Below, piece after piece: positions 2,948-62,025 of a DNA stretch of 64,000 nucleotides. Numbering within the stretch: the first letter of the stretch is position 1; each line of letters opens with the position of its first letter. The notes beneath the pieces were generated by a model. It did not search any database. It worked only from the letters and a program-made list of their open reading frames with translations, and was not told the origin of the DNA. The stretch comes from a bacterium UBP16_UBA6123 (GTDB lineage Bacteria; Muiribacteriota; UBA9980). The stretch lies in NCBI GenBank assembly GCA_002423385.1, contig DIVV01000135.1:8019-72018 (forward strand), in the 5' to 3' direction. Position numbers and translations under genes: made by a program.

Positions 2948-2948
2948 A

Positions 2949-4139: not shown

Positions 4140-4198
4140 AGTAAAGTAAAATGAAATAAAGTATAACAGTCAGTTAAAATATAATCAGGAGGTGTATT

Positions 4199-5179: not shown

Positions 5180-5283
5180 ACACCCGTATAAATTTTTATA
5201 ATGTTATTTGTAACCGCTTAGTTATATAAATTTATTCAACAATTACAAAAAGCGGAGCGAATGAAATTAAAGTGGGGAAATAA

Positions 5284-6153: not shown

Positions 6154-6167
6154 AAGAGGAGAAGTAA

Positions 6168-6893: not shown

Positions 6894-6916
6894 AATAAGA
6901 TTATCAGGGAGGCTTT

Positions 6917-7783: not shown

Positions 7784-7815
7784 AGATGACGATATTGTAA
7801 AAAGTGAGGAATTAA

Positions 7816-29799: not shown

Positions 29800-30265
29800 C
29801 TCTCATCTTTTTCGCGGCGCGCTCGACTGCTTCGAGTTTTTTTACATATCCTGTGCAGCGGCAGAGATTGCCGTCGGTCGCTCTTTTTATTTCATCCATA
29901 TTTGGATCGGGATTCGATTTTAAAAGGGCGTAAGATGAAATTAAAAAACCGGGTGTGCAGTAGCCGCATTGAACGCCGCCTGTTTCGAGTATGGATTCCT
30001 GGAGCGGATGAAGATTATCGCTTTCGCCTAAACCTTCGATGGTGGTTATTTCAAAGCCGTCGGCCGATGCGGCGGGTATCATGCATGAATTCATCGGCCT
30101 GCCGTTTACAAGCACCGTGCAGGCGCCGCAGCTTCCTTCGTAGCAGCCCTTTTTAATGCCTTTATAGCCGGCCGCCCTCAAGGCGTCCACGAGGCGCTCG
30201 TTTATTTTTACTCTTAATATTTTATCTTCGTTATTTATTTTTAATTTGATCTCTATTGTTTTCAT
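29789..30265 (-). CDS. [2Fe-2S]-binding small subunit of xanthine dehydrogenase/CO dehydrogenase family
   Basis: CYEGSCGACTV plant-type ferredoxin motif plus second cluster CGYCTPG...CRCTGY; 158 aa. Confidence 0.8.
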   Translation of the reverse strand: MKTIEIKLKINNEDKILRVKINERLVDALRAAGYKGIKKGCYEGSCGACTVLVNGRPMNSCMIPAASADGFEITTIEGLGESDNLHPLQESILETGGVQCGYCTPGFLISSYALLKSNPDPNMDEIKRATDGNLCRCTGYVKKLEAVERAAKKMRGDK

Positions 30266-30269
30266 AATC

Positions 30270-31133
30270 TTAATTGCCTCCTTTGTTTTCTTTAACGACG
30301 CGTTCTATGAGGCGCTCGAATAACGCGGGCAGTATTTCTTTTTTATATTCGATCGACACCCTTTTATCGTTTGTGAATATCGTTTCTGAAGCGGCATGAC
30401 GGGCGGCTTTTGCGGCGGCGCCTTTATCGTCTGCCGGCGCGCCTTTTAAAAGCGCCGCCGATTCGCTTAATAGCTGTGGCAGGCTTCCAGCGGCGCTTAC
30501 CGCGAAACGGATATCTTCGAATGCGCCGTCTTTTATTTTAGCGATCACTCCGGCGTCTAATATGGCGTAATCAAAATTAGTCTGTGAAAATTTAGTGAAT
30601 TTACCCGTATAACTGGTAAGATCAGGAAATAAAACTTCGGTGACTATTTCGTTTTTAGAAATTGCCAGACTCGGATGTTTTTTGACGGCGTTAATATATG
30701 ATAATTTTCTGATATTGTTTTTAGAGGCAACGCTGAGTTCGGCGCCGCATAAAAGAAGGGCGGCCGGAAGGTCCGACCACGGAAAGGTCTGGATTATATT
30801 ACCGCCTAAAGTTATCATATTTCTAAGAGGGGTGCTTGCGATATAATAGGCGGCCTCATAAATAAGCCCGCCGCAATAGTTTTTTATTTCATTCGATTCG
30901 AGAAGGCTGGCTATTGTTACGGTTGCGCCCGCCCTGACGCCGTTTTCATCTTTTATTATTTTATCCGTCCCGGTATTTTTGATGTCGATGAGAGTTTTCA
31001 CTTCGTTGTTTTTTGCCGCCATAACGGCCGTGCCGCCGGCGATCAACTTCGCGCCTTCGGTGTTTTCATCCGCGAGGCGCAGGGCTTCCTGCAGTGATGA
31101 AGGTTTATAATAGTTTTCTAATTTTCTGAGCAT
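30270..31133 (-). CDS. FAD-binding subunit of xanthine dehydrogenase/CO dehydrogenase family (CoxM/XdhB-like)
   Basis: 287 aa; AGGTAV FAD-binding motif (FAD_binding_5-like); first gene of a three-gene operon with 4-nt spacing. Confidence 0.75.
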   Translation of the reverse strand: MLRKLENYYKPSSLQEALRLADENTEGAKLIAGGTAVMAAKNNEVKTLIDIKNTGTDKIIKDENGVRAGATVTIASLLESNEIKNYCGGLIYEAAYYIASTPLRNMITLGGNIIQTFPWSDLPAALLLCGAELSVASKNNIRKLSYINAVKKHPSLAISKNEIVTEVLFPDLTSYTGKFTKFSQTNFDYAILDAGVIAKIKDGAFEDIRFAVSAAGSLPQLLSESAALLKGAPADDKGAAAKAARHAASETIFTNDKRVSIEYKKEILPALFERLIERVVKENKGGN

Positions 31134-46876: not shown

Positions 46877-47497
46877 TTGAGATCTATGTTCCGTTTTAAA
46901 CTTTTTATTTTATCTGTTTTCATAATTTTTTCGAGTATTTCGCCGTGCTTAGCTAATATTTGCGAAGAAGACGCGGCTAAAATGGCAATGTCACACTGTT
47001 TCAAAAACTTTTCAGATTTATACCAGAGTCCGAGCGTTAAAGTGCGCGTTGAAAAAGTCGAACTGGTTAAATTAAATGGAATTAACGGCCCGATAGAACT
47101 TTTCAATGTCGTGATATCTAAATATCACAAGCAGACTTTAGTTAAAATAAACGATTTTTTACTTTATGAAATTGAAAAGCAGAACGCTTCAATAGTCACT
47201 ATTAAAAATATAGAAGACGACAACTCATGTTTGAAGGCATCAGTCTATAAATTGTTTTGTGACGGCGGGTTGGCTTCGCTTAAATCGGTTAATTATGAAA
47301 AATACGCGAATATTATTAATCTTTGCGGCGATTTAATTTTAAGCGCCGTAAGGGAAGAAAGCGATAAATCCATAAAAGAAAGAGTTTTAAGTAATATAGA
47401 TACGGTAATCGCTGGAATCGGAATTTATAAACCTGAGCTTAATTATAAAATCGCGGAATTCGAACAGGGACTTAAATCTTTAAGAATTATGCAATAA
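46877..47497 (+). CDS. Hypothetical secreted protein
   Basis: Signal-peptide-like N-terminus; no recognised family. Confidence 0.3.
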   Translation: MRSMFRFKLFILSVFIIFSSISPCLANICEEDAAKMAMSHCFKNFSDLYQSPSVKVRVEKVELVKLNGINGPIELFNVVISKYHKQTLVKINDFLLYEIEKQNASIVTIKNIEDDNSCLKASVYKLFCDGGLASLKSVNYEKYANIINLCGDLILSAVREESDKSIKERVLSNIDTVIAGIGIYKPELNYKIAEFEQGLKSLRIMQ

Positions 47498-47658
47498 CCG
47501 GCTGGCGGCTGCACTTCATGCGCCGTATTTTATAGTATATTCAACCAGAGCGCATCAAGTTACTTTATAAACCGGCCCCGACGGGCTCAGAATGCTTTCA
47601 ATCAAGCTCGATCTGATTTCCGTTTGAGGGCCGGTTTTATCAATAAATGATTTTTTAT

Positions 47659-48195
47659 TTATATAGTGTTTAATGCGTCGAATTTCTTTTTATCTTCTAA
47701 TTCTTTTTTAGTTATTAATTTAACCGTGAAATTTTTGCCGTAATTAGAGTCCCATATAAAACCCCATGATTTGTAATTATCATAAGTATAAGCGGCGAAA
47801 AAGGCCACCTGTATCGTAGATGCGTCGTCGGGAATTTTTATTACCGCGCTAAGCTCGCCCGTAGCCGTAGGCTTGAGTTCCACGTCGCTGCAGCTCTGCC
47901 AGAAATCGTAGGAATATCTCATATATACGCTGCAGTTTTTATTAAATAAAATTTCTTTTCTTTCGTTGCCATAAACGATCCTGGCTTTTTTTCCAGCAAT
48001 CAGGCTGCCGTCGATTACAAAATGCTTATATTTTTTTTCTTCGCCGCTATATGTAAAATAGAGCGTAGCCGTGGTGTTTTTAATTTTATTAACCGCTTCA
48101 GAAGCCGCGGCTGGAACGCGCAGCGCCACCAGGTTAAAAATTACCATCATCGCTAATAATGCGTTTAAGGTATTGTAGTTAATATAGCTAAACAT
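47659..48195 (-). CDS. Hypothetical secreted protein
   Basis: Signal-peptide-like N-terminus, aromatic-rich beta-type sequence; no recognised family. Confidence 0.3.
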   Translation of the reverse strand: MFSYINYNTLNALLAMMVIFNLVALRVPAAASEAVNKIKNTTATLYFTYSGEEKKYKHFVIDGSLIAGKKARIVYGNERKEILFNKNCSVYMRYSYDFWQSCSDVELKPTATGELSAVIKIPDDASTIQVAFFAAYTYDNYKSWGFIWDSNYGKNFTVKLITKKELEDKKKFDALNTI

Positions 48196-48426
48196 TTAAT
48201 TCACTCGCTTTCATTTTTGCTTTTATTTTTAGATAACTTTTTTAAATAACTGATTATTTTAATCATTAAATTTACTGTAGCGTTACATACTTTTCTGCCT
48301 TTCTCTCAAATATATAGGCAATTAGCGTGCCATAACTTAAAATACTCGTAAAACCGCGGGTTATAGTATATATATCGGTGAATATTCAAGGTAGTAAAGT
48401 ATGAATTAAAATACAATCTATTGATT

Positions 48427-48462
48427 AAAAAATACGCATCATGATTAATTCACGGTGCGTAT
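48427..48462 (-). terminator. Rho-independent terminator closing the minus-strand selB/rSAM/ferredoxin array
   Basis: On minus strand: atacgca stem / tgcgtat stem (plus coords 48456-48462 and 48432-48438) followed by UUUUU (plus 48427-48431); 61 nt past ferredoxin stop. Confidence 0.4.
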
Positions 48463-48522
48463 TGATGATTTTATAAGCTGAATGCGCTTTATGATGATTA
48501 TAACGTATTATCGCGTTGATAA

Positions 48523-48711
48523 TTATTCGTATTTAATTGCGTTTACCGGGCAGCCTAAAGCGGCTTTTTGAATGCAGGCTTCGTTTTTAATAAAATCGGC
48601 GGAGGGAAGAATGCTTGACTTTTTGCCGATTATTTTAAAGACTTCAGGGCAACTGAATTCGCATGCCGTGCAGGCTATGCAGTCATCGGTTATATATACT
48701 TTTTTAATCAT
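48523..48711 (-). CDS. Small 4Fe-4S ferredoxin
   Basis: 62 aa; CIACTACEFSCP and later CxxxAxxGCP cluster motifs. Confidence 0.7.
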   Translation of the reverse strand: MIKKVYITDDCIACTACEFSCPEVFKIIGKKSSILPSADFIKNEACIQKAALGCPVNAIKYE

Positions 48712-48730
48712 TGAAGCCCCCTTTATATTA

Positions 48731-50923
48731 TTAATTGTTTTTACAATTGACTATTATACCATATTTGATAAATTTTTCAATAAGCGCCGGAAGGTTTTTT
48801 GAAATTAAAAGAATGTTTTTGTTGATGGTTTCAAATTCTTCGCCGGATTCTTCCGCTCTGGATAAAAGCTGGATATCGGCCGGTTTATTTTTATCGGTAT
48901 AATAAAAATAATCGAGCGCTAAAAAATCGAGCGGATCGTTAAAATAGAATTTTTGAGTATCGAATGTGCCGTCGTTGTTTACTATATGTTTTAAGGCCAT
49001 GCAAACCTTGCGGGCTGGCGGATTTTTAAAGTTGAATACGGTTGTTGCGGCAGCGGAGATATCGCAGCCTGATGGGCAATTTATTATATCGTTATCAAAG
49101 CGGATCAGCGAAAACGTTTTAGACAGTTTTAGCCTGCCGCCGCCGGCGAAATTTTCGGCGCACGCGCGGATAGCTTCATATAAACGGCCGTCACGTTTAA
49201 TTTTTTGAGGTTTTAAAAAATCGGGAAGTGAAAATCTTTTGGATTCGCCCGCGATAAAGTCGTATCGGAGGCAGTCCGATAAAATTTGATAATAGTCTGC
49301 TGCGGATGGTTTTATCGTTTCGCCGTTGAAGCGGTCTATATATAAAAACAGGTTCTGGCGAGATATCGCCGTTTCGGATATATCGTTGCGTTCGAAATAT
49401 TCTATGAGCGCAAAAAAAAGGTCCGACGGTTTTTTAAAATAATAAAACAGCGCGCGCAGCGTGAGATTAAGATGTCCGTGGTTATATAGCAAATCGAGAT
49501 ATCGGCCGAGTTTTTGAAGTTTGAACATTTCAAAAGCGTCGATAGTATTGGTTTTAATAACCGCATAGGGCGGGTTGAGATCGTAAATTAACCCCATTTT
49601 TTCGGCATTTTCACGAAGTTTAGTGCCGCGCAGAAGTTTTAGCTGCCAGAATTGCACGCTGTCGGGAGTTTTAGACAGGAGCTCGTCGAAAGAAGATATG
49701 CAGTTTTGATAATTATCGCCGGGCAGTCCGTACATTAAATCGGCGTGAATATTGATTCGGGTGTCATTAATCAATAAATCGAGGATATCGCCCGCGTTAA
49801 CGGTTTTAGCATTTTCGGGCGCGGTTGAACCGCCGCCGGCTTGTTCGCCGTCAGAGCTGGTTCTGGCAGGGCTTTCCGAGTTAACGCGTCCGACGGCGTC
49901 GAGCGCTTTTTTATTAAACGACTGCACGCCTATTTCGAATTGAAAATATTGCAGCTCGAGGCTTTTTAAATAATCGAGCAATTCGGGCGTGAACTTATAG
50001 GGGCTGATTTCAAATTGAAAAAGGGTTTCAGGCCGCGCGGCTGAAACCGCGTATTTAAAAATTGCGAGGGCGCGCCCGGGATCGTCGTTGAAAGTGCGGT
50101 CTATTACGCGAATTTTATCGATTTTTAAATCGTTTATTATCGTGTCGATATCTTTAAAAACGCGGTTTAATGAAAAATATCTGACTGCCGGCGCGTTTTT
50201 AGGCTTGAGCGAGCTCAGGCAATAATGACAGTGATTGGGGCAGCCGCGTGAGGTTTCAAGATATACGAAGTTTTTGCCGCCGCGCGCCGCCTGCCGGCCG
50301 TCATGCTTTAAAAAGATCGACGGCAGATCGTCTAAATTATTTACTACGGCCGGTTCCGGGCAAAATTCGAAGGCGCCGGAATCGCTTAAATGCGCCATGC
50401 CTTCTATCTGCATAAGACGGCCGCGCTCGGGGGCGGCTTCGCCCGAGCATTGGAAGGAGTCTATTGAAAGTTCTATAAAGCGCGCGAATGAAATTTCGCC
50501 CTCGCCGCTAATCGCGTAGGAAGCGCCGCACATGGCTTCGCTCTCGCCGCGGCAGACGGAAATAACTTCGGGCCCGCCGGCCAGGGTGAGCGCGTGTGGA
50601 AAAGCCCGTCTGATAAACGATATTAATTTACGGATAAAATCGTGGTTCCATATATATATTGAAAAGCAGTAAATATCGGCGTTATTCGAGCAAAGCGCGC
50701 GCGTGGCGTATTCATGGGTGTCGCTCAAGTTGAATTCATAAATTTTAAGCTCGTATCGATCGCACCCGATATTTTTTGAATCGAGATATTTGTAAAGATA
50801 GCCGCTCAAATAATCTAAGGCGGCGGCATTTTGCGTATAACGGGTATTAACGGCGCAAAGCGCGATTTTGAGTTTTTTAGCTGTCGTAGAGTTTTGGGCA
50901 TTTTTGATTTGATCGTCGTTCAT
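48731..50923 (-). CDS. B12-binding-domain radical SAM protein with C-terminal DUF4080-like region
   Basis: N-terminal cobalamin-binding-like domain (IALCAVNTRY...), radical SAM CxxxCxxC (CPNHCHYC), long C-terminal extension typical of the DUF4080 class; 730 aa; has a low-complexity insert (SPARTSSDGEQAGGGSTAPENAK). Confidence 0.7.
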   Translation of the reverse strand: MNDDQIKNAQNSTTAKKLKIALCAVNTRYTQNAAALDYLSGYLYKYLDSKNIGCDRYELKIYEFNLSDTHEYATRALCSNNADIYCFSIYIWNHDFIRKLISFIRRAFPHALTLAGGPEVISVCRGESEAMCGASYAISGEGEISFARFIELSIDSFQCSGEAAPERGRLMQIEGMAHLSDSGAFEFCPEPAVVNNLDDLPSIFLKHDGRQAARGGKNFVYLETSRGCPNHCHYCLSSLKPKNAPAVRYFSLNRVFKDIDTIINDLKIDKIRVIDRTFNDDPGRALAIFKYAVSAARPETLFQFEISPYKFTPELLDYLKSLELQYFQFEIGVQSFNKKALDAVGRVNSESPARTSSDGEQAGGGSTAPENAKTVNAGDILDLLINDTRINIHADLMYGLPGDNYQNCISSFDELLSKTPDSVQFWQLKLLRGTKLRENAEKMGLIYDLNPPYAVIKTNTIDAFEMFKLQKLGRYLDLLYNHGHLNLTLRALFYYFKKPSDLFFALIEYFERNDISETAISRQNLFLYIDRFNGETIKPSAADYYQILSDCLRYDFIAGESKRFSLPDFLKPQKIKRDGRLYEAIRACAENFAGGGRLKLSKTFSLIRFDNDIINCPSGCDISAAATTVFNFKNPPARKVCMALKHIVNNDGTFDTQKFYFNDPLDFLALDYFYYTDKNKPADIQLLSRAEESGEEFETINKNILLISKNLPALIEKFIKYGIIVNCKNN

Positions 50924-51006
50924 ATAGTAAGCCTGATTCGTTTTAAAGGCTTTCCCTTCTTTTAAGTTCGGTTTTTTAAAAATCCGGTTCAGTTTTTATC
51001 GGTCCT

Positions 51007-52956
51007 TTATTTTAAAAACCTGTCGTTTTCTTTTCGGACGGTTATGCCGGTTTTATCGAAAAATTCAAGTATCGCTATGGCGTATTTTCTTGACAGCGTG
51101 GTTTTATCTTTGAAATCGATGACGCTAAAAGACGGCTTTGCCGAAATTATCTCTTTAATAGCCGAAAGATATGATTCCATCTGGCCGGCTGTTATATAAT
51201 AGTTTTCGAATATTCTATAAATCGATTTTTCGTTCTCTAAAAATTTAACTACTTTATTAAAAAGCTCGATCTGGTTTTTAGCGACGACGGCTTTTACCTC
51301 GTCGAGAGTTTTAGGCGTAAATGAAGCGCCGTCGAAAGATTTAAAGATTTTCCGCCTTATAATTTCGGAATCGCCTTCGAGTTTTTTTTCCGCCGCTCCG
51401 CCGCCGGCGGGTAAAGTTATCATTCCGTCGGCGTTTTTAATTTTATTTTCGGCGGCAGCCGAGTCTATGATGTATGAATAAAAAAGAGTTTCGTCTTCGT
51501 CCGGTTTCGCCGAATATAACTTGAAAAGCTCTAATTTTGTGATGCCGGCGTTCAATTTATTCGAATTTAAGTATTGGTTTAATTTATCAATCATTGACGC
51601 TTTAAATGCCTGCATGTTTTTTTCGCCTGTAATCAGCCGGTCTTTGATAAAAAGATATTTATCATCAGGCGCCGCGCGGGAAATAATATCGATTATTTTT
51701 TCTTTAATGGTCATAAAAGCGGCGCAGGCAAGATTTATTTCTATAAAGCCGCGCTTTTTAATTTCATTTGAAAAAAATAATTCGGCTATTTTAGTTTCAT
51801 CTTCCATCGGCGCGTCTTTAAAAATTGAAACGCTTTCCAGTACGGCTTTTTTATTTTTAACAAGCTGGTTATGACAGCTTAATATTATTCCGCCGCCGAT
51901 AGTTTCTTCGTCGGTATGCGTCCTGATTATGAATGGTTTTAAAATTAAAGCGAAATCAGCCGAAGCCAGAATTATCTGGGCCAGATAAATGCTGTCCGCC
52001 TCGAGTTCCGAAGTTTCTAAAAGCCTCAGTTTGGCGGCGTAACAGGCGGAATAAAAATAAAATTTAATATTGGCGCCGCTTTTAATTTTATGTTTGAGGT
52101 TTTTGGACGCGCGGAGTTTAACGGTTAAAACACGGTATGTGCAAGCGATTTCGCTTGAAACTAAAAACGAGCCGCGCGCGATTTCAGCTTCGCGCGTTTT
52201 TGTTATATTAAGCGCGGCGCGCAGGCCGCTGCTCACTTCGCTGAATTTAGCCGAATGTGATTCTATGGAGCGTACCTTGCATTCGCCGCCGGGCATTATT
52301 TTATAAATTCCGTCGGTTTTAAGGCATCCCCGCATGAGCGTGCCGGTTAAAATCTGCCCGAATCCCGCTTTATCAAAGACACGGTCAATCGGATAAAGCG
52401 TTAATTTATCGATTTCGCGCCCTCCGCCGCTGACGCCTTCGGCCGCTAGAGCGGCTATTTCTTTGCTGACGGCGGCGATTAATTCGGCGCTTCCTTTTTT
52501 ATCGGCCGCGGAAAAATTTATAATCTTTGAATTTTGAAATTTTGTGTCTTTTAAAAAATCTTCGATTTCCATTCTGCGGTACTCGATATCGTCTTCGGAA
52601 ACCAGGTCGCATTTATTGAGCACCGCTATTATTTTAGAAATTCCGCAAAAATTTAATATATCGAAGTGTTCGACGGTCTGCGGCATTATTCCTTCACTTG
52701 CCGCTATTACAAGCAGCGCGACGCGCGCGCCGAATATTCCGGCGAGCATGTTATGAACGAAATCTTCGTGGCCCGGAACATCTATTATGGAAACCGGCCC
52801 CGCGCCTTCTATATCGATATGCGCGAAGCCTATATCGATGGTGATTTCGCGCTCTATCTCCTCGCGGTAGCGCGCGGTGGTAATGCCCGTGAGCGCCTTG
52901 ATTACGCTTGATTTGCCGTGGTCAACGTGACCGGCCATTCCTATTACGAATCCCAT
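51007..52956 (-). CDS. selB: Selenocysteine-specific translation elongation factor
   Basis: GTPase N-terminus GMAGHVDHGKSS..., DVPGHEDF, NKCDL; 649 aa with long C-terminal winged-helix region as in bacterial SelB. Confidence 0.8.
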   Translation of the reverse strand: MGFVIGMAGHVDHGKSSVIKALTGITTARYREEIEREITIDIGFAHIDIEGAGPVSIIDVPGHEDFVHNMLAGIFGARVALLVIAASEGIMPQTVEHFDILNFCGISKIIAVLNKCDLVSEDDIEYRRMEIEDFLKDTKFQNSKIINFSAADKKGSAELIAAVSKEIAALAAEGVSGGGREIDKLTLYPIDRVFDKAGFGQILTGTLMRGCLKTDGIYKIMPGGECKVRSIESHSAKFSEVSSGLRAALNITKTREAEIARGSFLVSSEIACTYRVLTVKLRASKNLKHKIKSGANIKFYFYSACYAAKLRLLETSELEADSIYLAQIILASADFALILKPFIIRTHTDEETIGGGIILSCHNQLVKNKKAVLESVSIFKDAPMEDETKIAELFFSNEIKKRGFIEINLACAAFMTIKEKIIDIISRAAPDDKYLFIKDRLITGEKNMQAFKASMIDKLNQYLNSNKLNAGITKLELFKLYSAKPDEDETLFYSYIIDSAAAENKIKNADGMITLPAGGGAAEKKLEGDSEIIRRKIFKSFDGASFTPKTLDEVKAVVAKNQIELFNKVVKFLENEKSIYRIFENYYITAGQMESYLSAIKEIISAKPSFSVIDFKDKTTLSRKYAIAILEFFDKTGITVRKENDRFLK

Positions 52957-52983
52957 TTTATCTCCGTCGGCGGGCGCCGATGA

Positions 52984-53655
52984 TTATTTCCATAAAAGCG
53001 CCAGGCCGCCCACGGTTTTATAGACGCCCTGATATAAATAATAAGAGCCGATTCCGATGGCGCAAATTTTACCTATCGTAACCGCCGTTTTTCCGCGGCA
53101 GGCCGCCCCCAGAAACGGGACGACCGCAAAGTATATCGAAGATCCCGCGAAAAAGGCGAAGTAGAAAAAAAGCGCGCTTAAAAGTCCGTGCCTGTTGGCT
53201 GCTTCAAAGACGGCTATGAGTATGGGCGGGCAGATATTAAACGCCGTTAAAAATCCCAGGCCGAGCGCCGTTTTTGAAAAAAATCCAGCGGCCCCTGAAC
53301 CGCCCGCGGCGCCGGCCGCGCTGGATGCATCGGCCCCGCAGCCGCAGGAGTTAGTTTTAGTTTTTATCAGGGCGTGGTGCATTAAAAACGCGGCCAGAAT
53401 AAAAAAAGAAACTCCGCTGATCACGTTTTTAATTACGTCGTTTTTAAATATGGCCTTACTGATATACCAGGCGAAGGTGCCGACCGCCATATAGCCCAAA
53501 AACCGTCCTAAAAGAAAATTAAGGCTTACTTTAAGCGTCTGGATAAATCCGTTTCCTTCGCTTAAAACATAAGGCACGACCAGCGGCGTACATGTAAACA
53601 GGCACACCGGGCTGAGACTGAGGCCGAGCATAAACGCTTTGATGAATGAATCCAT
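52984..53655 (-). CDS. CcdA/DsbD-family (DsbD_2-like) transmembrane thiol-disulfide transporter, tentative
   Basis: N-terminus AFMLGLSLSPVCLFTCTPLVVPYVLS parallels CcdA LSFLSPCVLPLVP; second Cys motif AFNICPPIL; ~6 TM; Gly/Ala/Ser-rich loop with CGCG. Confidence 0.45.
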   Translation of the reverse strand: MDSFIKAFMLGLSLSPVCLFTCTPLVVPYVLSEGNGFIQTLKVSLNFLLGRFLGYMAVGTFAWYISKAIFKNDVIKNVISGVSFFILAAFLMHHALIKTKTNSCGCGADASSAAGAAGGSGAAGFFSKTALGLGFLTAFNICPPILIAVFEAANRHGLLSALFFYFAFFAGSSIYFAVVPFLGAACRGKTAVTIGKICAIGIGSYYLYQGVYKTVGGLALLWK

Positions 53656-53694
53656 ATTATCAGCTTTCCTTTAAAGTGGTTATTATAGATATTT

Positions 53695-55032
53695 TTAATA
53701 AAAACCGAAAAATCTTGCTACCGCGGGGCCCGCGCCGGACATATTAAGCGATACCGGCACCATTAGTACGGCCAGCAGGTTGAGGCGTCGCGAGTGCCAC
53801 ATATTAGGCACGAGTCCGAGCGCGGTGGCGACGGTTAAAAGAACCATACCCTGCCAGTGGGTAATTTGTATCGTTAGTACGATTAACATCGCGCAGCCGA
53901 TGGCCGAAAACCAGTTGTAGTCGATTTTTTCTACAAGGTAAGCGCACAGGCGCGAGAACCAGCCGATCAGAAGAAACGATACGGCGCCGGTGAGTGCGAT
54001 TATCCCCGATATTAAAAAGAATTGCTCGGGAGTTTCGGGTACGAAAAATAAACTTATATTAATGGCCGCGCCGCCGCGTCTCATGAAAACGCCGGGCATG
54101 AAAAACAGCATCAACGCGCCCACATAGTATATAACGCGCCCCACGCCGCCGCCGATTAAAAACTGCCGCTCGCCCGATGTGACCGTTAAATGGCCGGTGC
54201 ATAAAAGCGCCGGGCCTGGAGTCATGCCGGGAACGAGCGCCGCGTAAAGGCCGGCTAAAAATCCCGAAGCGCTGCCGCGCATAACGTCGTGCGGCGCGGA
54301 TTCTACGGAGTCGCATATATATTGTTTGGGTACTTTAACCTTAGTCATAAAAGTCATTATCTGCGAGGGAATGGCGAAGAGTCCTACGAATAAGGGCATC
54401 AGCGACTGGAAGGCGTTTTCGACCGGAACGATGGTGCGGTAAAATACGAACATGCCGAGGATTCCAGCCACTATAAAGGTGAAATAGCCCATTAAAAGCT
54501 GGACCCAGCCGTCCCAGAATCTCTGCCAGCCGGTTTTTCCGACGCCGTGGTCTTTCGGCCACTCGGTCATCAAAATAAAAAACATGACAAGCGCGACCAT
54601 CCAGTAGCCGTGCGGCTGGACGATATTGCGCGCCAGGGCGAAAAACGAAGGTATAAGCGGAAATAATAGAGTTATTATAAAAATTGCCACCAGACTTCCG
54701 AGCGCGCCCAGCATTACCGCTTCGTGCCCTCTGCCTTCTAAAAGAAAGCGTTCGTGCGGCAGCATTATCGAACGGAAACTTTCATCGTTCGGCTGGAAAT
54801 ATTGTGAGGAAACCGTAAAGAGCATTGAAAACCCTACGACCATGCCGAGCATAAAGCCGGTAAGCACTATAGGATGAAGTCCTGAAAAAAGGTCGGCCGC
54901 CGTGAAAGCCAGCAGCATCGTAAGCGCGATGACGTTATAGATGTGAAGCCCCGGTATGATCGAGGCGAGCATCGCGATAAAAACTCCTATGAGCGAAGCT
55001 ATGATTGAATATATAACGATCGAGATTTCCAT
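53695..55032 (-). CDS. Polytopic membrane transporter, TctA/DUF112-like, tentative
   Basis: 445 aa, about 10-12 TM; two Pro/Gly-rich half-site motifs (IIPGLH..., LVPGMTPGPALL) resembling the TctA repeats. Confidence 0.3.
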   Translation of the reverse strand: MEISIVIYSIIASLIGVFIAMLASIIPGLHIYNVIALTMLLAFTAADLFSGLHPIVLTGFMLGMVVGFSMLFTVSSQYFQPNDESFRSIMLPHERFLLEGRGHEAVMLGALGSLVAIFIITLLFPLIPSFFALARNIVQPHGYWMVALVMFFILMTEWPKDHGVGKTGWQRFWDGWVQLLMGYFTFIVAGILGMFVFYRTIVPVENAFQSLMPLFVGLFAIPSQIMTFMTKVKVPKQYICDSVESAPHDVMRGSASGFLAGLYAALVPGMTPGPALLCTGHLTVTSGERQFLIGGGVGRVIYYVGALMLFFMPGVFMRRGGAAINISLFFVPETPEQFFLISGIIALTGAVSFLLIGWFSRLCAYLVEKIDYNWFSAIGCAMLIVLTIQITHWQGMVLLTVATALGLVPNMWHSRRLNLLAVLMVPVSLNMSGAGPAVARFFGFY

Positions 55033-55066
55033 AGATTATTATCCTCCCCTGTTAAGGAATATAAGT

Positions 55067-55969
55067 TTAATTTAATATTATAATGGCGTCGGTTTCTTCT
55101 TCGTTGACCTTAATTTCCCAGTAACCGCCGCGTTCGTAAAAGACGAAAAGCCCGTTTATCGATAGTTTCTGCCCTTCTTTATACCGCGTGGAATCAACGC
55201 CGAAAACTATTACAGAAGCCGGTTTCGAGCCGGGAATGGTTTCAACGGCGGTATCGGCCACTTCGACTATGAGCTTGCCGCGTTTTGATACAACTATGGC
55301 TTCTTTTATCTTAATTTTTTTATTTTTGAAGTTATCGGGTTTTTCAAGAAGCGATTTGATATCCGCGTCGATGGTTTTATTTTCATTCGACTTATCTACC
55401 ACTTTTAAAAGTTCGGCGGTGCCGAGGCTCAGCGTGCGGTATCCTTTTCCGGCAAAAAGCGTCGCCGAGGCGTCGATGATATCGCCGCGGGCGGGCAGCA
55501 GCCCTTTTTCTTTAAGCTCTCTGGCGACTTCGCCTTCGGCTTTTAGTTTGATGCGGCCTTCGTAGTCGTCGCCGCTGCCTTTAGATGCGTCTTCGAGCTC
55601 TAATTGTATCGTCGAGCGCTTCTGGTATTTGTCTTTGAATTCGCTTATATAGCGCACTTTTGCAAGTACGCGCACGTGCGAAAAATTCATGGTTTCGTTA
55701 AGATCGCCTATGGCTATATAATTCGGGCTCAAACTTACCGATATCGCGAAATAAACGAGGGCGGCTATAAAAAGTATTATAGTCGAAAGATTCATACTTC
55801 TTACGCTTATCCGCTCGCGCGGCGGGGTAAGCGCGCAGCAGTAAGCGCACCTTTTTTTAAATTCAGGGTTCGGCCGTCCGCAGCTCGGGCATTTGTCCGC
55901 GATATTAAGCGTTTCCGGCGCGCCGTCCATATTCATGGTATCTATTTCAAAATTATTTTGATCGCTCAA
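55067..55969 (-). CDS. Membrane protein: N-terminal Cys4 zinc ribbon, single TM, extracytoplasmic region with two OB-fold-like modules
   Basis: CPSCGRPNPEFKKRCAYCC; TM IILFIAALVYFAISV; paralog of the adjacent gene (ARELKEKGLLPARGDIIDASATL vs TRELVEAKKLPAFGDKIKMTASF). Confidence 0.4.
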   Translation of the reverse strand: MSDQNNFEIDTMNMDGAPETLNIADKCPSCGRPNPEFKKRCAYCCALTPPRERISVRSMNLSTIILFIAALVYFAISVSLSPNYIAIGDLNETMNFSHVRVLAKVRYISEFKDKYQKRSTIQLELEDASKGSGDDYEGRIKLKAEGEVARELKEKGLLPARGDIIDASATLFAGKGYRTLSLGTAELLKVVDKSNENKTIDADIKSLLEKPDNFKNKKIKIKEAIVVSKRGKLIVEVADTAVETIPGSKPASVIVFGVDSTRYKEGQKLSINGLFVFYERGGYWEIKVNEEETDAIIILN

Positions 55970-55997
55970 TGTTATCCTCCATATACGGTATACGACA

Positions 55998-56897
55998 TTA
56001 CATCATATTGTCTTTTTTGACGATATCTTCGCTCGCTTTTATGATACTTTCGGCCGAGGGGAGCACAATTACGAAATATTTATCGTCTTTTTTGCCGCGC
56101 AGTTCGAGCGCTCCGCTTAAAGTGATAAAATCGCCTTCGCGCGGCGCGTCTTTCCACTCATCGGCGTTTTCTTTGACGAGGCGTCCCGCCTGCAAAGCGG
56201 AAAACGGCATTACCGCGGTCAGCCGGGTTTCATCGGTCGCCTCGCCGGCTTCCAGGTCGATTTCAAGCTCGTATCTGGAGCTGTTGACGGCCGCAACGCG
56301 CCCCGACACCTTTACGATATCGCCGCGTTTGAATTTATCGCCGGGGTTTTCATTGACGGTTTTAATCGGTGAAGCGGTTTCGGGCGTATGGCGCTCTATT
56401 TTAATGCCTTTTTCCGAGCCGAGTATTAAGAAACCGCCCTTGCCTTTATATTGAAAACTTGCCGTCATTTTGATTTTATCGCCGAAGGCGGGGAGTTTTT
56501 TGGCTTCGACGAGTTCGCGCGTGGCGTCGTCATAGCAGCGAACGAGCATAAGGGCGGTGCCGTCGTCGATTTCGAATTCGACCGAACCTCCGGCGTTTTC
56601 GCCTTTATCGGCGGCCGCATAGTAGCGCAGTGGCGCGTTAACGACGGCGTTAGTGGTTACCTGGGCGAAGTTGCTACGTTTGGTGAGCGTGTCGAGCTTA
56701 ACCTCGGGATTGCCGTAATGAACGCCGATATAATGAAGTACAAAGAGGCCAAGGACTGATATTATGGGGGTTAAATATTTAATCAGGCGTACCGAAAGCC
56801 TCTTGGGATTAAAACTACGGCAGAAAGGACACAATTCCAGCGCGCCGACAAAACGGCCGCAGGTTTTACAGTGCGTTTCTTCGTAATTTTGACTCAT
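55998..56897 (-). CDS. Paralogous zinc-ribbon / TM / 2xOB-fold-like membrane protein
   Basis: CKTCGRFVGALELCPFC; TM PIISVLGLFVLHYIGV; C-terminal region homologous to 55067-55969. Confidence 0.4.
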   Translation of the reverse strand: MSQNYEETHCKTCGRFVGALELCPFCRSFNPKRLSVRLIKYLTPIISVLGLFVLHYIGVHYGNPEVKLDTLTKRSNFAQVTTNAVVNAPLRYYAAADKGENAGGSVEFEIDDGTALMLVRCYDDATRELVEAKKLPAFGDKIKMTASFQYKGKGGFLILGSEKGIKIERHTPETASPIKTVNENPGDKFKRGDIVKVSGRVAAVNSSRYELEIDLEAGEATDETRLTAVMPFSALQAGRLVKENADEWKDAPREGDFITLSGALELRGKKDDKYFVIVLPSAESIIKASEDIVKKDNMM

Positions 56898-57002
56898 GAC
56901 GATTTTTTCGACTTCAGGTTTTAGTTTAATAACATACCACCCTCTTTACAATTATTTATATTAAAAATTGCCTTATTTTGCCGTTCTATTTGGTAATATG
57001 AT

Positions 57003-58838
57003 TTATCTTTTAAGCCTTATTTTCGGGCGCAGGTCTTGATTCGGGGCGTTGCTGATATCGTTAGCCTGTTCCATAAGCGTTTTATGCGGTCCGCCTTCTA
57101 TATCGCGGAATTTGACGAATCCTTCGTTCATGAGTTTTTTCAGAAGCGTTTCGATGCGGCTGAATCGATAAGCGTTGGTGCTTTCTTTAAAGCCGAGTTC
57201 GAAAAACCTGTTTTCTTCTATGAAGAAGAAGTACTGAACGCATGGTGATTTGCCTTCGGGCGCGTCGCGGTTTTTATCCAGGTGCAGGCTCAGTATATCT
57301 ATTTTAGGCAGATGTATAGGGTCTTTATTCATAGATTCAGCCAGATGGGCCATCTGGTTGTATAATTCTTTCGAATCGCCCCAGTCTTTGCTTAATATCA
57401 TCGCGCAGTCCAGATCGTATTCGATGTCGCCGGAGCCTTTGCAATGGTACAAACCCGGCCTTTCATCGTCATTTTCGGTTATTTCGATCATACAGCCTTC
57501 TTTGTTTAAAGACGATATGATTATAAGCGGGCAGTTAAGTTCTATGGTAAGGCGTTTCAGGTCGGTGGATATCTCTTCCACTCTGAATTTTTCGGAGTCG
57601 TAATTTCTGGCGATCGGCATTTTCTGGATATAATCGCAGACTATTAAAACCTCGTCGGTTTGATGGTCCTGCATGGCGTTATAGGCGTGGGCCTTGATGC
57701 GGTCAACCGTGTCTTCTTTGGTGCCTTCGATTACATAAAGGCAGTCCATGTATTGTTCCATTTTAACCCAGCCCTGGGCGAATTTCATATCGTTTTCGGG
57801 CACGCCCTTGATGCGGCGTCGTTGAAGAGTGTCGGGGTTGATCCTGGTTTCTTTAGCTAAAAGCCTGTAGGTGAGGTTCTTTTTAGTCTGTTCCCAGGTG
57901 AAGAACAGGACGGGCTTTTTGCTGTTAGAGGCCACCAGCGTGGCTAATTCGAGAGTAAAATTGGTCTTGCCGCGCCTCGGCGCGCCCGCTATGCCGTATA
58001 AAAATCCGCGCCTGAGGCCTGAAATGGCGCTGCTTAAATCGCTGAAAGGTTTCAGCGAATATCCAAGGCAGTCTTTTTCGCCTTCGAGCTCGCGCTGATT
58101 GATATCCTGAGCTATTTCAATCATCTGCGCCTTGATGAGCTGTATTTCTTTTTTGGACTGAGCCCTCTGGATATCGCGAATTTCTTTGGTGATTTCGCTC
58201 GAAAAATCGATGAAGCTCATTTTGGCTTCCTTATCGACGCCCTTTAAAAAATTATTGATGCGATGAGTGATTTCGCGAAGCTGATGCTTTGAACTTTCTT
58301 CTCGCAGTATCTTAAGATAAGCCATCACCTGCGAAAGTTGAGGCACGCGCGATTTAGTGACCAGGTCGAAAAAGCGTTTCATATTATCGTCGAAAAGTTT
58401 GTTCTGTTCGAGCTTATTTCTTATTATTATCGCGTCAACTACTTTTTCGCGGCCGACTCCGGCGTAAACGTCCTGTATCATTCTGAAAATATGCTTCGAA
58501 TAAATATTATGAAGCATTTTTTCATTGAAGCCTTCGTTTAATACCTTGCCGAGCATGTACTGATCGTTTATAAAGCCGTTTAGTATGGTTATTTCTATTT
58601 CTTCGTTTAAATCGGAAGCCGGCGGCATTTCATAAGAATGTGATGACGGCGCGGCCGCTGTCACGCCGGAGGATTCTACTCTGCTGGCTGCTTGAGCGTC
58701 GCCGCCCGTGGCGCTTTTATCGCGTACGGCGCGAAGCGGCTCCGTACGGGCGCTCTGGAATATAGAAAACGCGCATTTGCCGCAAATTCCGGAAAAGTTG
58801 CTTTCGGGTATGCCTGCACCGCATTTTTTGCATTTCAT
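57003..58838 (-). CDS. DnaB-family helicase with N-terminal Cys4 zinc ribbon and ~90-aa C-terminal extension
   Basis: CKKCGAGIPESNFSGICGKC; DnaB-N-like segment (FNEKMLHNIYSKHIFRMIQDVY...); RecA-like core with Walker A GAPRRGKT, Walker B VLIVCDYIQKM, and KGSGDIEYDLD. Confidence 0.55.
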   Translation of the reverse strand: MKCKKCGAGIPESNFSGICGKCAFSIFQSARTEPLRAVRDKSATGGDAQAASRVESSGVTAAAPSSHSYEMPPASDLNEEIEITILNGFINDQYMLGKVLNEGFNEKMLHNIYSKHIFRMIQDVYAGVGREKVVDAIIIRNKLEQNKLFDDNMKRFFDLVTKSRVPQLSQVMAYLKILREESSKHQLREITHRINNFLKGVDKEAKMSFIDFSSEITKEIRDIQRAQSKKEIQLIKAQMIEIAQDINQRELEGEKDCLGYSLKPFSDLSSAISGLRRGFLYGIAGAPRRGKTNFTLELATLVASNSKKPVLFFTWEQTKKNLTYRLLAKETRINPDTLQRRRIKGVPENDMKFAQGWVKMEQYMDCLYVIEGTKEDTVDRIKAHAYNAMQDHQTDEVLIVCDYIQKMPIARNYDSEKFRVEEISTDLKRLTIELNCPLIIISSLNKEGCMIEITENDDERPGLYHCKGSGDIEYDLDCAMILSKDWGDSKELYNQMAHLAESMNKDPIHLPKIDILSLHLDKNRDAPEGKSPCVQYFFFIEENRFFELGFKESTNAYRFSRIETLLKKLMNEGFVKFRDIEGGPHKTLMEQANDISNAPNQDLRPKIRLKR

Positions 58839-60004: not shown

Positions 60005-60556
60005 TTAAATTATTTCTTTAAATATTTCGGCCTTCGGCGAAGGTATTACGACGGCGTTAACTAAAAGCCCTTTTTCGCCTATTATTTTAACGGCGGCATC
60101 TACCGCCTCGCGGACGTTTGAAACCGTTCCGGTCATCGTGCAGTAAGCCTTTCCGCCAAGCGCCATAGCGAGCCTTATTTCGATAAGCTCTACGTTAGCC
60201 GCTTTGACGGCCGCGTCGGCGCCTTCTATAAGAGAGGCCACCGAAAAGGCTTCTACGATTCCCAGCGCGTCGGGTTTGCAAAAATCGCAGGCGCCCTTAA
60301 TGGCTTTAAAAACCGATTCGTGAACGTTAGGGATCACGAAGGAATCTATCAAAGTATTTGCGGCGGCTTCGATTCCCGCTTCTACCGAAGATTTTACCGC
60401 GGCGACCTCGCCGCCCACTAAAGCTACGAATTTGCCCGAACATACGGTTCTGAGTAATAACAATTCGGTGTTCGCAGCTTTTATCATCGTGTCGCCGATT
60501 AAAAAACCGGAGGCGACAGAAGATGATTCTATTATTCCAATAGCTCTGCTAGTCAT
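60005..60556 (-). CDS. pduT: Tandem-BMC-domain microcompartment shell protein, PduT-like (Fe-S pore Cys conserved)
   Basis: 183 aa, two BMC repeats (AIGIIESSSVASG...KAANTEL and ALGIVEAFSVASL...KAANVEL); near-collinear with Salmonella PduT including RTVCSGKF (PduT TICPGKF, 4Fe-4S ligand Cys). Confidence 0.75.
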   Translation of the reverse strand: MTSRAIGIIESSSVASGFLIGDTMIKAANTELLLLRTVCSGKFVALVGGEVAAVKSSVEAGIEAAANTLIDSFVIPNVHESVFKAIKGACDFCKPDALGIVEAFSVASLIEGADAAVKAANVELIEIRLAMALGGKAYCTMTGTVSNVREAVDAAVKIIGEKGLLVNAVVIPSPKAEIFKEII

Positions 60557-60587
60557 GATTCTTTTCCTTTCCCGGATTAAATGATCA

Positions 60588-60640
60588 GTTGTTAGTCGTT
60601 AGGGGGCCGTTAGTCGTTAGTTGTTAGTTATTAGAGGTTA
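60588..60640. repeat. GTTAG-based direct repeats (GTTAGTCGTTAG x2 separated by GGGGCC, plus further GTTAG copies) in the PduS-like/PduT spacer
   Basis: Seen directly: 60591-60602 and 60609-60620 are identical 12-mers; additional gttag at 60623-60627 and ttattag following. Confidence 0.8.
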
Positions 60641-60690
60641 CTAAATTAAATATAGTTGGCAGTTTCACGCGTTGTGTTATTTTTAAAGCG

Positions 60691-62025
60691 TTAAACGGCT
60701 TTTATTATTATGGCGTCTTTTCTTATCGAAGAAACCGTTCCGTCTATCGAGGCGTGAATGTCGGCGCCAAGTTTATTTTCGGCCATAGTGGCTATCAACT
60801 GCCCTTTTTTAACGGTTTCACCTATTGACACTAAAGGTTCCGCGGGCTGGCCTATATGCTGTTTTAATAATATAGTTACCGATTCGGGTTTGATTTCGAT
60901 TAAATTCAGTTCGGCATGATCGTTATAGCCGCCAAGCCCGATTTTATTTATTAATTTTTTAGTCGGCACTTTTCGATATTGCGCCATAGGATGAGCTTTT
61001 AAATTATCTTTTTTCGCTTCGAATTTTAATCCGCCCGCTATGGCGTCACGCTTGGCCGAGGCGCACATAAAGTTGGGCAGCAAATCTTCGGGGCACGAAT
61101 AAAAACCGCATAAACCGCACTCTACGCATCCCGACGCCCATTTAGTTATCAGCGGATCGTTTTGCGAGCTCATTAAAAGAGTGCGCATTACGCGGTGCGG
61201 CTCTATCTGGTGGCCGACGAGGTAGCGCGGGCAGAACTCGGTGCAGTAGGAGCATTGATCGCAGGCCGATTTGCCGACTTTTTTGAACTGCGCAGGTTTT
61301 TGGGTTTTGCGCTGTATGAATTTATGTCCGGCTGAAAGCACTATATATCCCGAAGAGGTTTTAGTGATCGGAGTTTCGGCGTCATAAACTATCTCGCTCA
61401 TCATGGCGCCGCCCGACATATAAACCGGATCGGAAACAAGTGTTTTTCCCGCCAGGCCGATGATATCTGAAATTTTAACGCCTATAGGCACTTTCAGGGT
61501 TATCGGATGTTCGACTTCGCCGGCGATAGTTAAAAATTTGTCGGTAACTGGCGCCGAAGTTTTATAGGCGGCAAAAATATTATAAAAAGTTTCAACATTT
61601 GAAACTATAACGCCAACATTGAGCGGAATTCCCCCTGGCGGCACGATACGGCCGAGTACGTCGCTCACCATCACCACTTCGTCGCCCGCCGGATAATAAT
61701 CGCCGATAATATGTATTTTAATTCTACCGTCGAGCTTATTAGCGGCGATTATCTCATTCATTTTTTCGATAGCTTCTTTATTTTTGCTTTTAAGCGCTAT
61801 TATACCGCATTTTGCAGATGAATTAGCCGTGGTTAAAAGCAGGCCGCCGATTATCTCTTCGGCGAAGTTCTTCATCATTTCTTTATCTTTACATAAAAGA
61901 GGTTCGCACTCGGCGCCGTTGACGATAATGGTATCGACTTTAGCGTTCATTTTAACGTGAGACGGAAATCCGGCGCCGCCAGCGCCTACTATTCCGGCTT
62001 TTTTGATCGTATCGATTAAATTCAT
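60691..62025 (-). CDS. RnfC/complex-I-51K-family flavo-Fe-S oxidoreductase, PduS-like
   Basis: GAGGAGFP nucleotide/FMN motif, two 4Fe-4S motifs (CDQCSYCTEFCP, CVECGLCGFYSCP), 444 aa, immediately upstream of pduT as in pdu operons. Confidence 0.6.
   Translation of the reverse strand: MNLIDTIKKAGIVGAGGAGFPSHVKMNAKVDTIIVNGAECEPLLCKDKEMMKNFAEEIIGGLLLTTANSSAKCGIIALKSKNKEAIEKMNEIIAANKLDGRIKIHIIGDYYPAGDEVVMVSDVLGRIVPPGGIPLNVGVIVSNVETFYNIFAAYKTSAPVTDKFLTIAGEVEHPITLKVPIGVKISDIIGLAGKTLVSDPVYMSGGAMMSEIVYDAETPITKTSSGYIVLSAGHKFIQRKTQKPAQFKKVGKSACDQCSYCTEFCPRYLVGHQIEPHRVMRTLLMSSQNDPLITKWASGCVECGLCGFYSCPEDLLPNFMCASAKRDAIAGGLKFEAKKDNLKAHPMAQYRKVPTKKLINKIGLGGYNDHAELNLIEIKPESVTILLKQHIGQPAEPLVSIGETVKKGQLIATMAENKLGADIHASIDGTVSSIRKDAIIIKAV

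Follow-up and report, generated by a model that had tools for sequence, protein, structure and literature searches.

The window analysed here, a 64-kb stretch of a contig belonging to an uncultured member of Candidatus Wallbacteria, carries selB inside a long co-directional run of minus-strand genes which extends from 63612 down to 48523. Seven of these genes, namely two encoding zinc-ribbon/OB-fold proteins, a TctA-family gene, a DsbD_2-family gene (hereafter dsbD2), selB, a radical SAM gene (rSAM) and a ferredoxin gene, precede an intrinsic terminator. The first product of this string is a zinc-ribbon membrane protein of 299 aa (55998..56897), in which an N-terminal zinc ribbon (CxxC...CxxC) is followed by one TM helix and OB-fold-like domains with a weak match to PF01336; the second is its 300-aa paralogue (55067..55969, 26% identity), combining a zinc ribbon, a TM helix and a beta-rich part and matching no family in Pfam or NCBIfam. 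Downstream lie the genes for an orphan TctA-family permease (445 aa, 53695..55032), the DsbD_2-family membrane protein (223 aa, 52984..53655), the selenocysteine-specific elongation factor SelB (649 aa, 51007..52956), a putative B12/radical-SAM enzyme with C-terminal DUF4080 (730 aa, 48731..50923) and a single-cluster 4Fe-4S ferredoxin paired with the latter (62 aa, 48523..48711; PF13370 Fer4_13). Spacers comprise 39 nt between the TctA gene and dsbD2, 27 nt between dsbD2 and selB (52957..52983) and 83 nt between selB and the rSAM gene. The terminator (48427..48463) is formed by a 13-bp interrupted stem, its hairpin spanning 48463..48431, with a U-run after it, and is unusually stable (-14.2 kcal/mol, z = -5.05, none of 200 shuffles being equally stable). 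All ORF positions and the strand given in the preliminary description hold, as do the terminator that it placed near 48430 and its 83-nt spacer, while the 28 nt reported ahead of selB should read 27 nt and the co-directional run, correctly noticed, reaches farther than it was described.

The short dsbD2/selB spacer contains a GGAG Shine-Dalgarno element 5 nt ahead of the selB ATG and no promoter-like site, and we infer co-transcription of the two genes. A GC hairpin within this spacer was considered as a regulatory element and discarded, its stability being that of shuffled sequences (z = -0.16) and the hairpin missing in relatives. The TctA, DsbD_2 and SelB ORFs share one frame, yet both internal stops are TAA, which dismisses fusion of the three by UGA read-through; dsbD2 itself has no internal stop and terminates with TAA.

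SelB passes the curated equivalog cut-off of TIGR00475 (276.2 bits against 242.25, residues 4-649 aligned) and combines an EF-Tu-like GTPase with a C-terminal winged helix: in Pfam, GTP_EFTU covers residues 5-167 and SelB-wing_3 residues 603-648, Beta-barrel_SelB being detected as well, and the motifs G1 (AGHVDHGKS), G3 (DVPGH) and G4 (NKxD) are invariant. PF09106 and PF03144 were undetected in this protein, which we attribute to sequence divergence. Ranking of homologues gave no more than 33% identity to any SelB from outside Wallbacteria. The gene, named selB already in the preliminary description, genuinely encodes a selenocysteine elongation factor, though a divergent one.

Of selA, selD and tRNA-Sec the window has none, as had been noticed before: ARAGORN found no tRNA in the 64 kb, Rfam gave no match at gathering score anywhere in it and, within 47000..57500, none to tRNA-Sec at E<=1, and some 55 genes of the window surveyed with Pfam revealed no SelA or SelD domains. 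According to work cited in PMC13188914, tRNA-Sec is nested in or near selB in some phyla; this arrangement was sought and rejected here, given the results of both programs for the window and the lack of any ARAGORN hit in nine related loci. Neither is a UGA-interrupted gene present in the 64-kb window, where searches for TGA-joined ORFs, for TGA codons just ahead of starts and for read-through of TGA stops yielded nothing but artefacts on the non-coding strand or between genes. In the window and seven related loci, neither genes for thioredoxin-like proteins or exported selenoproteins nor candidates with an in-frame UGA were encountered, no cytochrome c maturation genes occur among the window genes or in the same seven loci, and Pfam detected no YeeE/YedE or SirA/DsrE-type domains in surveyed window genes or related loci.

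Separation of selB from selA is ordinary. The preliminary description took selB to be found as a rule beside selA or selD, which is not supported for selA by a survey of 48 diverse selB loci having at least 3 kb of flank on each side: selA adjoins selB in nine of them and is found anywhere in the flank in 12.

The product of dsbD2 matches PF13386 (55.3 bits, cut-off 24.9), the only family reported at E<=1e-3, and does not match PF02683 (DsbD/CcdA). NCBIfam gave no match even at E<=1, including the model NF045694 for TsoB, a rhodanese/DsbD-fusion selenoprotein, and no UGA interrupts the frame where the cysteine motif is encoded. Six TM helices are predicted, the best full-length structural match is CcdA and the fold of the subfamily appears CcdA/RnfA-like; the CcdA-like assignment of the preliminary description survives at the level of the DsbD-superfamily HMM and of this structural match but not at that of PF02683. 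By prediction, the four invariant cysteines lie as CxxxC in TM1, as one loop residue past TM3 and within CPP in TM4. The four-cysteine subfamily comprises 312 representatives at E<=1e-30, and among 170 aligned sequences both C18 and C22 are conserved in 166 (the remaining four are gapped there), C104 in 162, C142 in all 170 and R51 in 169; the window protein conforms to the resulting signature CxxxC(TM1) / C(loop) / CPP(TM4) / GR..Y. Some members are fused to a Fer4_5 polyferredoxin with or without FMN_bind, the fused parts matching NosR, NapH and RnfG; Fer4_5 genes adjoin homologues in loci L096 and L098, and remote homologues have polyferredoxin or rSAM/Memo genes as neighbors rather than sel genes. 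Since members of the subfamily are repeatedly fused or adjacent to NosR/NapH-type polyferredoxins, it points to transmembrane electron transfer, not to CcdA proper. A family-profile sequence search of solved structures returned nothing meaningful and a literature search for PF13386 no papers. With about 300 diverse representatives and frequent fusions to NosR/NapH/RnfG-like modules, the subfamily gives the impression of a kind of transmembrane electron conduit not described before.

Related Candidatus Wallbacteria lineages (loci L082, L084-L088, L092 and L100) allowed the neighborhood to be followed beyond the window. The adjacency of the membrane protein gene and selB pointed out in the preliminary description is conserved: in five lineages (window, L084, L100, L082 and L086) dsbD2 immediately precedes selB, and in a sixth (L087) it comes directly after selA. 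L087 and L092 carry arsR-selA-(71 nt)-dsbD2, followed by one inserted opposite-strand gene and selB, so dsbD2 has selA as its sel neighbor in some lineages and selB in others. All DsbD_2 orthologues with more than 60% identity adjoin a sel gene where the contig is long enough, and this persistence offers a weak lead to a selenium-handling membrane component. DsbD_2 is strongly constrained, being 78-88% identical where SelB is 60-69%. Against the refuting condition set in the preliminary description, the synteny comparison gave a divided answer: deeper Wallbacteria lineages have either arsR-selA-selB, which is the canonical arrangement of L085, or selB alone, and L088 also lacks the dsbD2-selB pair, but the neighborhood of dsbD2 and selB is kept in the other lineages.

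The TctA-like protein matches PF01970 over residues 11-419 of its 445 (85.2 bits against 28.9), with no TctB or TctC partner among neighboring genes. Its gene precedes dsbD2 in three of six lineages, the proteins of L084 and L100 being 93-96% identical, and in the same three (window, L084 and L100) the 299-aa zinc-ribbon gene is kept upstream of it; this latter protein is a neighbor outside the sel unit. A connection to selenium was considered for TctA, for which the sole hint from outside is that in M. maripaludis a TctA-family gene near yedE is induced 2.6 log2 by selenium depletion (PMC11097638). Orthologues of 445 aa and 55-67% identity are present in Lentisphaerota, Planctomycetes, Deltaproteobacteria and Thermoplasmatota, and since the type is widespread in other phyla and linked to selB in only three lineages, we treat TctA as a neighbor. 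The rSAM protein contains Radical_SAM (45 bits) and DUF4080 domains and a CPNHCHYC motif at residues 228-235 (CxxxCxxC); its putative B12-binding domain scores 31.9 against a cut-off of 32.1, and its best partial NCBIfam matches, far below cut-offs, are B12-rSAM families. The linkage of TctA and of the rSAM-ferredoxin pair to selB looks like inherited synteny.

Several explanations can be offered for the company of selB. The preliminary description allowed for a tie between the B12-rSAM enzyme and selenium metabolism, with the enzyme and its ferredoxin co-expressed with selB. The pair follows selB both in the window, where one terminator closes the gene string, and in L086, where the start of the rSAM gene (62% identity) abuts or overlaps the selB stop and the ferredoxin, in the same position, is 85% identical. 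These are the only two such lineages, and their gene order agrees throughout on the downstream side (histidine kinase-truA-DUF1844-DUF362), so the adjacency counts as a single event; the rSAM gene does not follow selB in L082, L084, L085, L087 or L088, nor in any of 80 background loci, and a literature search on DUF4080 with radical SAM found no papers. The enzyme is probably a neighbor only, and its involvement in selenium metabolism appears highly improbable. Scarcely better placed is a CcdA-type thiol-disulfide shuttle keeping an exported periplasmic thioredoxin-fold selenoprotein reduced, a client suggested by the preliminary description. It is favored by the linkage of dsbD2 to sel genes and by likeness to CcdA/DsbD-beta (PF02683; PDB 5VKV): in addition to the structural match, DsbD_2 belongs to the same clan-level HMM family and is predicted to span the membrane six times (3+3), with a cysteine beside a proline in both TM1 and TM4. 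Unlike CcdA, however, it has a CxxxC motif in TM1, where CcdA has a single cysteine, and an invariant loop cysteine, so that two invariant cysteines (the second of CxxxC and C104) are unneeded by CcdA; its family is partnered by polyferredoxin and FMN proteins rather than by thioredoxins; and besides the missing PF02683 match, neither cytochrome c maturation genes nor any of the candidate clients sought in the window and seven related loci were encountered, no UGA-interrupted ORF or Trx-like neighbor being there to be served. We regard this shuttle as very unlikely.

A much more serious competitor is neutral synteny, according to which selB merely resides in a long co-directional run of unrelated genes and DsbD_2 is a general redox neighbor bearing no relation to selenium. 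The five lineages in which the two genes adjoin directly are close kin (TctA 93-96% and DnaB 92% identical), and therefore shared descent alone could hold dsbD2 and selB together; the phylum keeps gene order well, the block ispF-dxr-kinase-ispD-NYN being retained even at 44-48% SelB identity. The dsbD2/selB spacer varies from 10 nt in L082 and 27 nt in the window to 70 nt in L084, 93 nt in L100 and 165 nt in L086, and those of L084 and L086 are AT-rich and could accommodate a selB promoter. The pair is lacking in L085 and L088, and a DsbD_2 homologue of 40% identity from the same sample as L088 has an unrelated gene context. Among 80 selB loci from other phyla (about 30% identity, collected by a contig scan with generic GTPase motifs), none carries a gene of the DsbD_2 subfamily at distances of up to 10 kb from selB. 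Against neutrality stand the tight spacing in L082 and the window, the location of dsbD2 between selA and selB in L087, and survival of the pair next to at least three different upstream neighbors (TctA, glycerate kinase or methyltransferase) and at least three downstream ones (rSAM-ferredoxin, convergent ispF, or a hypothetical gene plus HATPase). Rearrangements were roughly counted as about six at the two outer junctions versus one at the inner, which is not significantly unlike equal rates (binomial p about 0.26), and we do not use breakpoint statistics as an argument for the pairing. Neutral synteny is a quite possible explanation, in which case the window presents an ordinary selB locus of a poorly known phylum.

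The reading we tentatively put forward takes the window to hold a dsbD2-selB remnant of a Wallbacteria sel cluster into which dsbD2 was recruited for selenium supply. That the pair is a remnant of a lineage-specific sel cluster is probable judging from gene order, because DsbD_2 borders selB in five lineages and selA in the sixth, and deeper lineages have arsR-selA-selB. The ancestral Wallbacteria-specific cluster would have been arsR-selA-dsbD2-selB, flanked now by unrelated genes, those upstream encoding the OB-fold proteins and TctA, those downstream the B12-rSAM enzyme and ferredoxin; SelB would act as an ordinary Sec-tRNA(Sec) elongation factor, with selA, selD and selC presumably located elsewhere in the genome. 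The DsbD_2 subfamily may serve as a transmembrane redox module drawing electrons from ferredoxin-type partners, and its Wallbacteria member, once recruited into the sel cluster, could aid selenium supply as a route across the membrane for reducing power or for a thiophilic selenium species, so that selenium would reach SelD as selenide. Any role of DsbD_2 in selenium handling is what we infer from this context. A bolder version, in which DsbD_2 is a dedicated membrane part of selenium acquisition for selenocysteine synthesis, encoded within the Wallbacteria sel cluster, an electron/thiol conduit reducing or handing over extracytoplasmic selenium for uptake and possibly acting with the adjacent TctA-type permease, seems unlikely to us. 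Were this bolder version true, DsbD_2 would rank among the first membrane proteins given a specific role in selenium supply, whatever the organism.

Among known systems, the DsbD_2 family recalls the RnfA/RnfE and NqrD/NqrE membrane subunits and NosR/NapH-type electron-transfer proteins in that some members are fused to FMN_bind (RnfG/NosR-like) and Fer4_5 (NapH/NosR-like) modules, and these fusions mirror the Rnf electron path, which runs from polyferredoxin via membrane cysteines to FMN. Unlike RnfA/RnfE and NqrD/NqrE, it has no sequence-level match to Rnf or Nqr families, and unlike NosR/NapH/Rnf, the Wallbacteria orthologue is unfused and devoid of a polyferredoxin neighbor, any metal or cluster binding being putative. 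Bacterial sel operons are organized as selAB in E. coli and as selA-selB-selC in Gram-positives. The window SelB is a canonical member of its family, and in deeper Wallbacteria selA-selB follows an ArsR/SmtB regulator; the differences are that selA has moved away from the window locus, that a membrane-protein gene occupies the selA-proximal side of selB (in L087, between selA and selB), and that this SelB is no more than 33% identical to those known outside the phylum. As for selenium supply, reviews and a Methanococcus study know of no dedicated selenium transporter or membrane system (PMC13188914, PMC11097638), and YedE, nominated as selenium-associated by genome context (PMC5322559), is the only strong, though context-based, candidate, to which DsbD_2 would add a concrete second. 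Like YedE/YedF (FdhT), DsbD_2 is a cysteine-bearing membrane protein tied to selenium by genome context alone; unlike them, it belongs to an unrelated family and its association is limited to a single candidate phylum, while the co-occurrence of YedE with SelD extends over the prokaryotes.

The ORFs of the preliminary description are present at the coordinates it assigned, all on the minus strand, and their family assignments are upheld with one qualification. selB (51007..52956, minus strand) matches the curated equivalog TIGR00475 with 276 bits against a cut-off of 242, and its product comprises the EF-Tu GTPase, the SelB beta-barrel and a C-terminal winged helix. The gene directly upstream (dsbD2, 52984..53655, minus strand) encodes a 223-aa membrane protein whose attribution to the CcdA/DsbD family stands as far as PF13386 (DsbD_2) is concerned, but not for PF02683 (DsbD/CcdA), which gave no match. 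It is preceded by an orphan permease gene (53695..55032, minus strand) with a 445-aa product matching TctA over its full length. On the other side of selB lie genes for a 730-aa putative B12/radical-SAM enzyme (48731..50923, minus strand) and for a 62-aa single-cluster ferredoxin (48523..48711, minus strand). The enzyme matches Radical_SAM and DUF4080 and has CxxxCxxC at residues 228-235; its B12-binding domain scores slightly below the Pfam cut-off. Spacers between TctA and DsbD_2, DsbD_2 and selB, and selB and the radical-SAM gene are 39, 27 and 83 nt, respectively. The terminator proposed after the ferredoxin gene is a strong intrinsic one (48463..48431 followed by a U-run, z = -5.05), and the codirected run which it closes extends from 63612 to 48523, further than originally described. 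The TctA, DsbD_2 and SelB genes all lie in the same frame, yet both internal stops are TAA, and UGA read-through joining them was rejected.

Other genes of the window deserve mention in their own right. Upstream of TctA, two tandem paralogues (55067-56897, minus strand; 26% identity, no family assignment) each combine an N-terminal zinc ribbon (CxxC...CxxC), one transmembrane helix and OB-fold-like domains; in three lineages the conserved pair immediately precedes the orphan TctA gene, with counterparts in the related Wallbacteria loci L084 (6015-7878) and L100 (4503-6334). A bacterial microcompartment shell protein gene adjoins an RnfC-like gene (Complex1_51K/RnfC_N) at 60005-62025 (minus strand), this pair being kept in L084. 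A three-subunit molybdenum hydroxylase of the xanthine dehydrogenase family (27391-31133, minus strand; MoCoBD_1/2, Fer2_2, FAD_binding_5), adjoined by a cytosine/purine permease gene (25643-27160, plus strand), could be of the selenium-dependent type, given a Sec-using anaerobe. A metal- and sulfur-related run (841-8529, plus strand) contains ZnuA and ABC-3 transporter parts, a Cys/Met-metabolism PLP enzyme, a radical SAM protein, an ARMT1-like phosphatase, two tandem DUF364/DUF4213 “heavy-metal chelation” genes and a metallo-beta-lactamase-fold gene.

The reported absence of tRNA, selA and selD from the window was confirmed: no tRNA and, among some 55 surveyed genes, no SelA or SelD domain was found, no Rfam family reached its gathering score in the window, and the region around selB gave no tRNA-Sec at E<=1. 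The expectation that selB lies with selA as a rule did not hold, since in a non-random sample of 80 selB loci from many phyla, collected by genome scan and scored for selA, selA directly adjoins selB in 9 and lies anywhere in the flank in 12 of the 48 loci having at least 3 kb on either side of selB. Isolated selB is not unusual, and its separation from selA is common. An identical SelB comes from a JGI metagenome contig (sample 3300002498); close relatives number only about 16 (44-91% identity), the named ones being Candidatus Wallbacteria, and all other SelB proteins are at most 33% identical. The gene is a divergent but genuine candidate-phylum selB, and the observation as a whole is real but largely ordinary.

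One feature alone merits following up: in a conserved, lineage-specific association, sel genes are accompanied by the gene of a four-cysteine membrane protein with a putative CcdA fold. The order DnaB-OB-OB-TctA-DsbD_2-SelB is shared by the window and L084 (SelB 67% identical to that of the window, itself 100%), and by L100 (62%) except that its contig begins after the DnaB position. L082 (65%) carries HemC-glycerate kinase-DsbD_2-SelB, and L086 (61%) methyltransferase-DsbD_2-SelB-rSAM(DUF4080)-ferredoxin. In L087 and L092 (55%) the order is ArsR-SelA-DsbD_2-SelB, with 71 nt between SelA and DsbD_2 and a 428-aa gene on the opposite strand before SelB; L085 (48%) has ArsR-SelA-SelB, and L088 (44%) SelB alone. 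DsbD_2 is the only constant sel neighbour: each of the six lineages possessing it has it beside a sel gene, with at least three different contexts occurring upstream and at least three downstream. TctA (three lineages) and the radical-SAM-ferredoxin pair (two lineages) each co-vary with a larger synteny block on their own side, and are read as probable inherited neighbours. Downstream of selB, a convergent ispF-dxr-kinase-ispD-NYN block is common to L082, L084, L085, L087 and L088, while the window and L086 share the radical-SAM-ferredoxin pair followed by histidine kinase-truA-DUF1844-DUF362. A further rearrangement of the upstream junction is seen in L091, which belongs to a sub-lineage akin to L082: there the glycerate kinase gene and DsbD_2 are set apart by some 1.7 kb of additional sequence (4864-6575), and the contig ends inside DsbD_2, before any selB. 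The ArsR/SmtB metalloregulator preceding selA in the deeper lineages (L085 6608-6850; L087 5815-6111) scores 88.8 bits against a cut-off of 55, has the sulfite sensor BigR as next-best match and shows 81% identity against 52% for SelA; it may regulate the sel cluster in response to selenium or chalcogens.

In the most likely history, an ancestral Wallbacteria-specific cluster arsR-selA-dsbD2-selB would have lost selA by relocation in the crown group while dsbD2 and selB remained joined, the window being such a remnant with new neighbours. The DsbD_2 module may, by inference, support selenium supply, either by transferring thiophilic selenium species across the membrane or by furnishing reducing power on its outer side, a proposal to be held tentatively and to which we give slightly less than an even chance. 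Pure inherited synteny of the dsbD2-selB pair is judged equally likely. The five lineages in which the two genes directly adjoin are closely related (TctA, 53695-55032, 93-96% and DnaB, 57003-58838, 92% identical), and by our own arithmetic the tally of about six rearrangements at the outer junctions and a single insertion at the inner one does not depart significantly from equal rates (p ~0.26). The five dsbD2-selB spacers measure 10, 27, 70, 93 and 165 nt, of which the 70- and 165-nt ones are AT-rich and could hold a promoter. The seemingly fast-evolving SelB (51007-52956) is 60-69% identical across the same genomes and DsbD_2 78-88%; the low SelB value reflects either unusually fast evolution in the Wallbacteria group or a mosaic locus. 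The sample that gave L088 also yielded a DsbD_2 homologue (40% identical) in unrelated context, and none of the 80 background selB loci has a DsbD_2-subfamily gene.

The two functional suggestions of the preliminary description fared poorly. That the CcdA-like protein services a periplasmic selenoprotein is improbable, since neither a client nor a thioredoxin-like partner turned up and crude scans for genes interrupted by UGA yielded nothing credible. A selenium role for the B12/radical-SAM enzyme is still harder to credit: the enzyme and its ferredoxin follow selB in the window and L086 only, co-varying with the downstream block, and no DUF4080 radical-SAM gene, nor any TctA-like one, occurs in the 80 background loci. 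For TctA a lead exists in M. maripaludis, where selenium depletion raises expression of a TctA-family gene located near yedE (PMC11097638). A transporter dedicated to selenium is not known (PMC13188914, PMC11097638), YedE having been nominated from genome context alone (PMC5322559). The Wallbacteria TctA type is not sel-specific, because orthologues 55-67% identical exist in several other phyla.

The Wallbacteria DsbD_2 orthologues share seven invariant cysteines. Profile search of the full library returned 312 cluster representatives at E<=1e-30 and 1805 at E<=1e-3; across about 170 representatives C18 and C22 (CxxxC, TM1), C104 (after TM3) and C142-P-P (TM4), together with G50-R51 and Y55, are essentially invariant. 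No NCBIfam model covers the protein, that of the TsoB DsbD-fusion selenoprotein included, and its AlphaFold model presents a six-transmembrane-helix layout at moderate confidence (pLDDT 67.7). Three members (P0232, P0244, P0261) start just past the TM1 CxxxC motif, for which a wrongly called start, truncation at a contig edge or an in-frame UGA (Sec) codon within CxxxC may be responsible. Several members carry a fused Fer4_5 polyferredoxin, in some cases together with FMN_bind, these parts matching NosR, NapH and RnfG; P0193, P0208, P0248 and P0292, from outside the window, join four-cysteine DsbD_2, FMN_bind and Fer4_5 in NosR/RnfG/NapH-like architecture, and about 27 further representatives carry an uncharacterised C-terminal domain of 120-250 aa. 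Two remote homologues are followed by a Fer4_5 protein gene and a third by a radical SAM gene of the Memo/AMMECR1 set. These fusions and neighbours point to transmembrane electron transfer, a simple solute-transporter role being less well supported. By analogy, electrons could pass through a CcdA-like dithiol relay, or the membrane cysteines could hold an intramembrane Fe-S or metal site, for which Rnf and Nqr provide the precedent.
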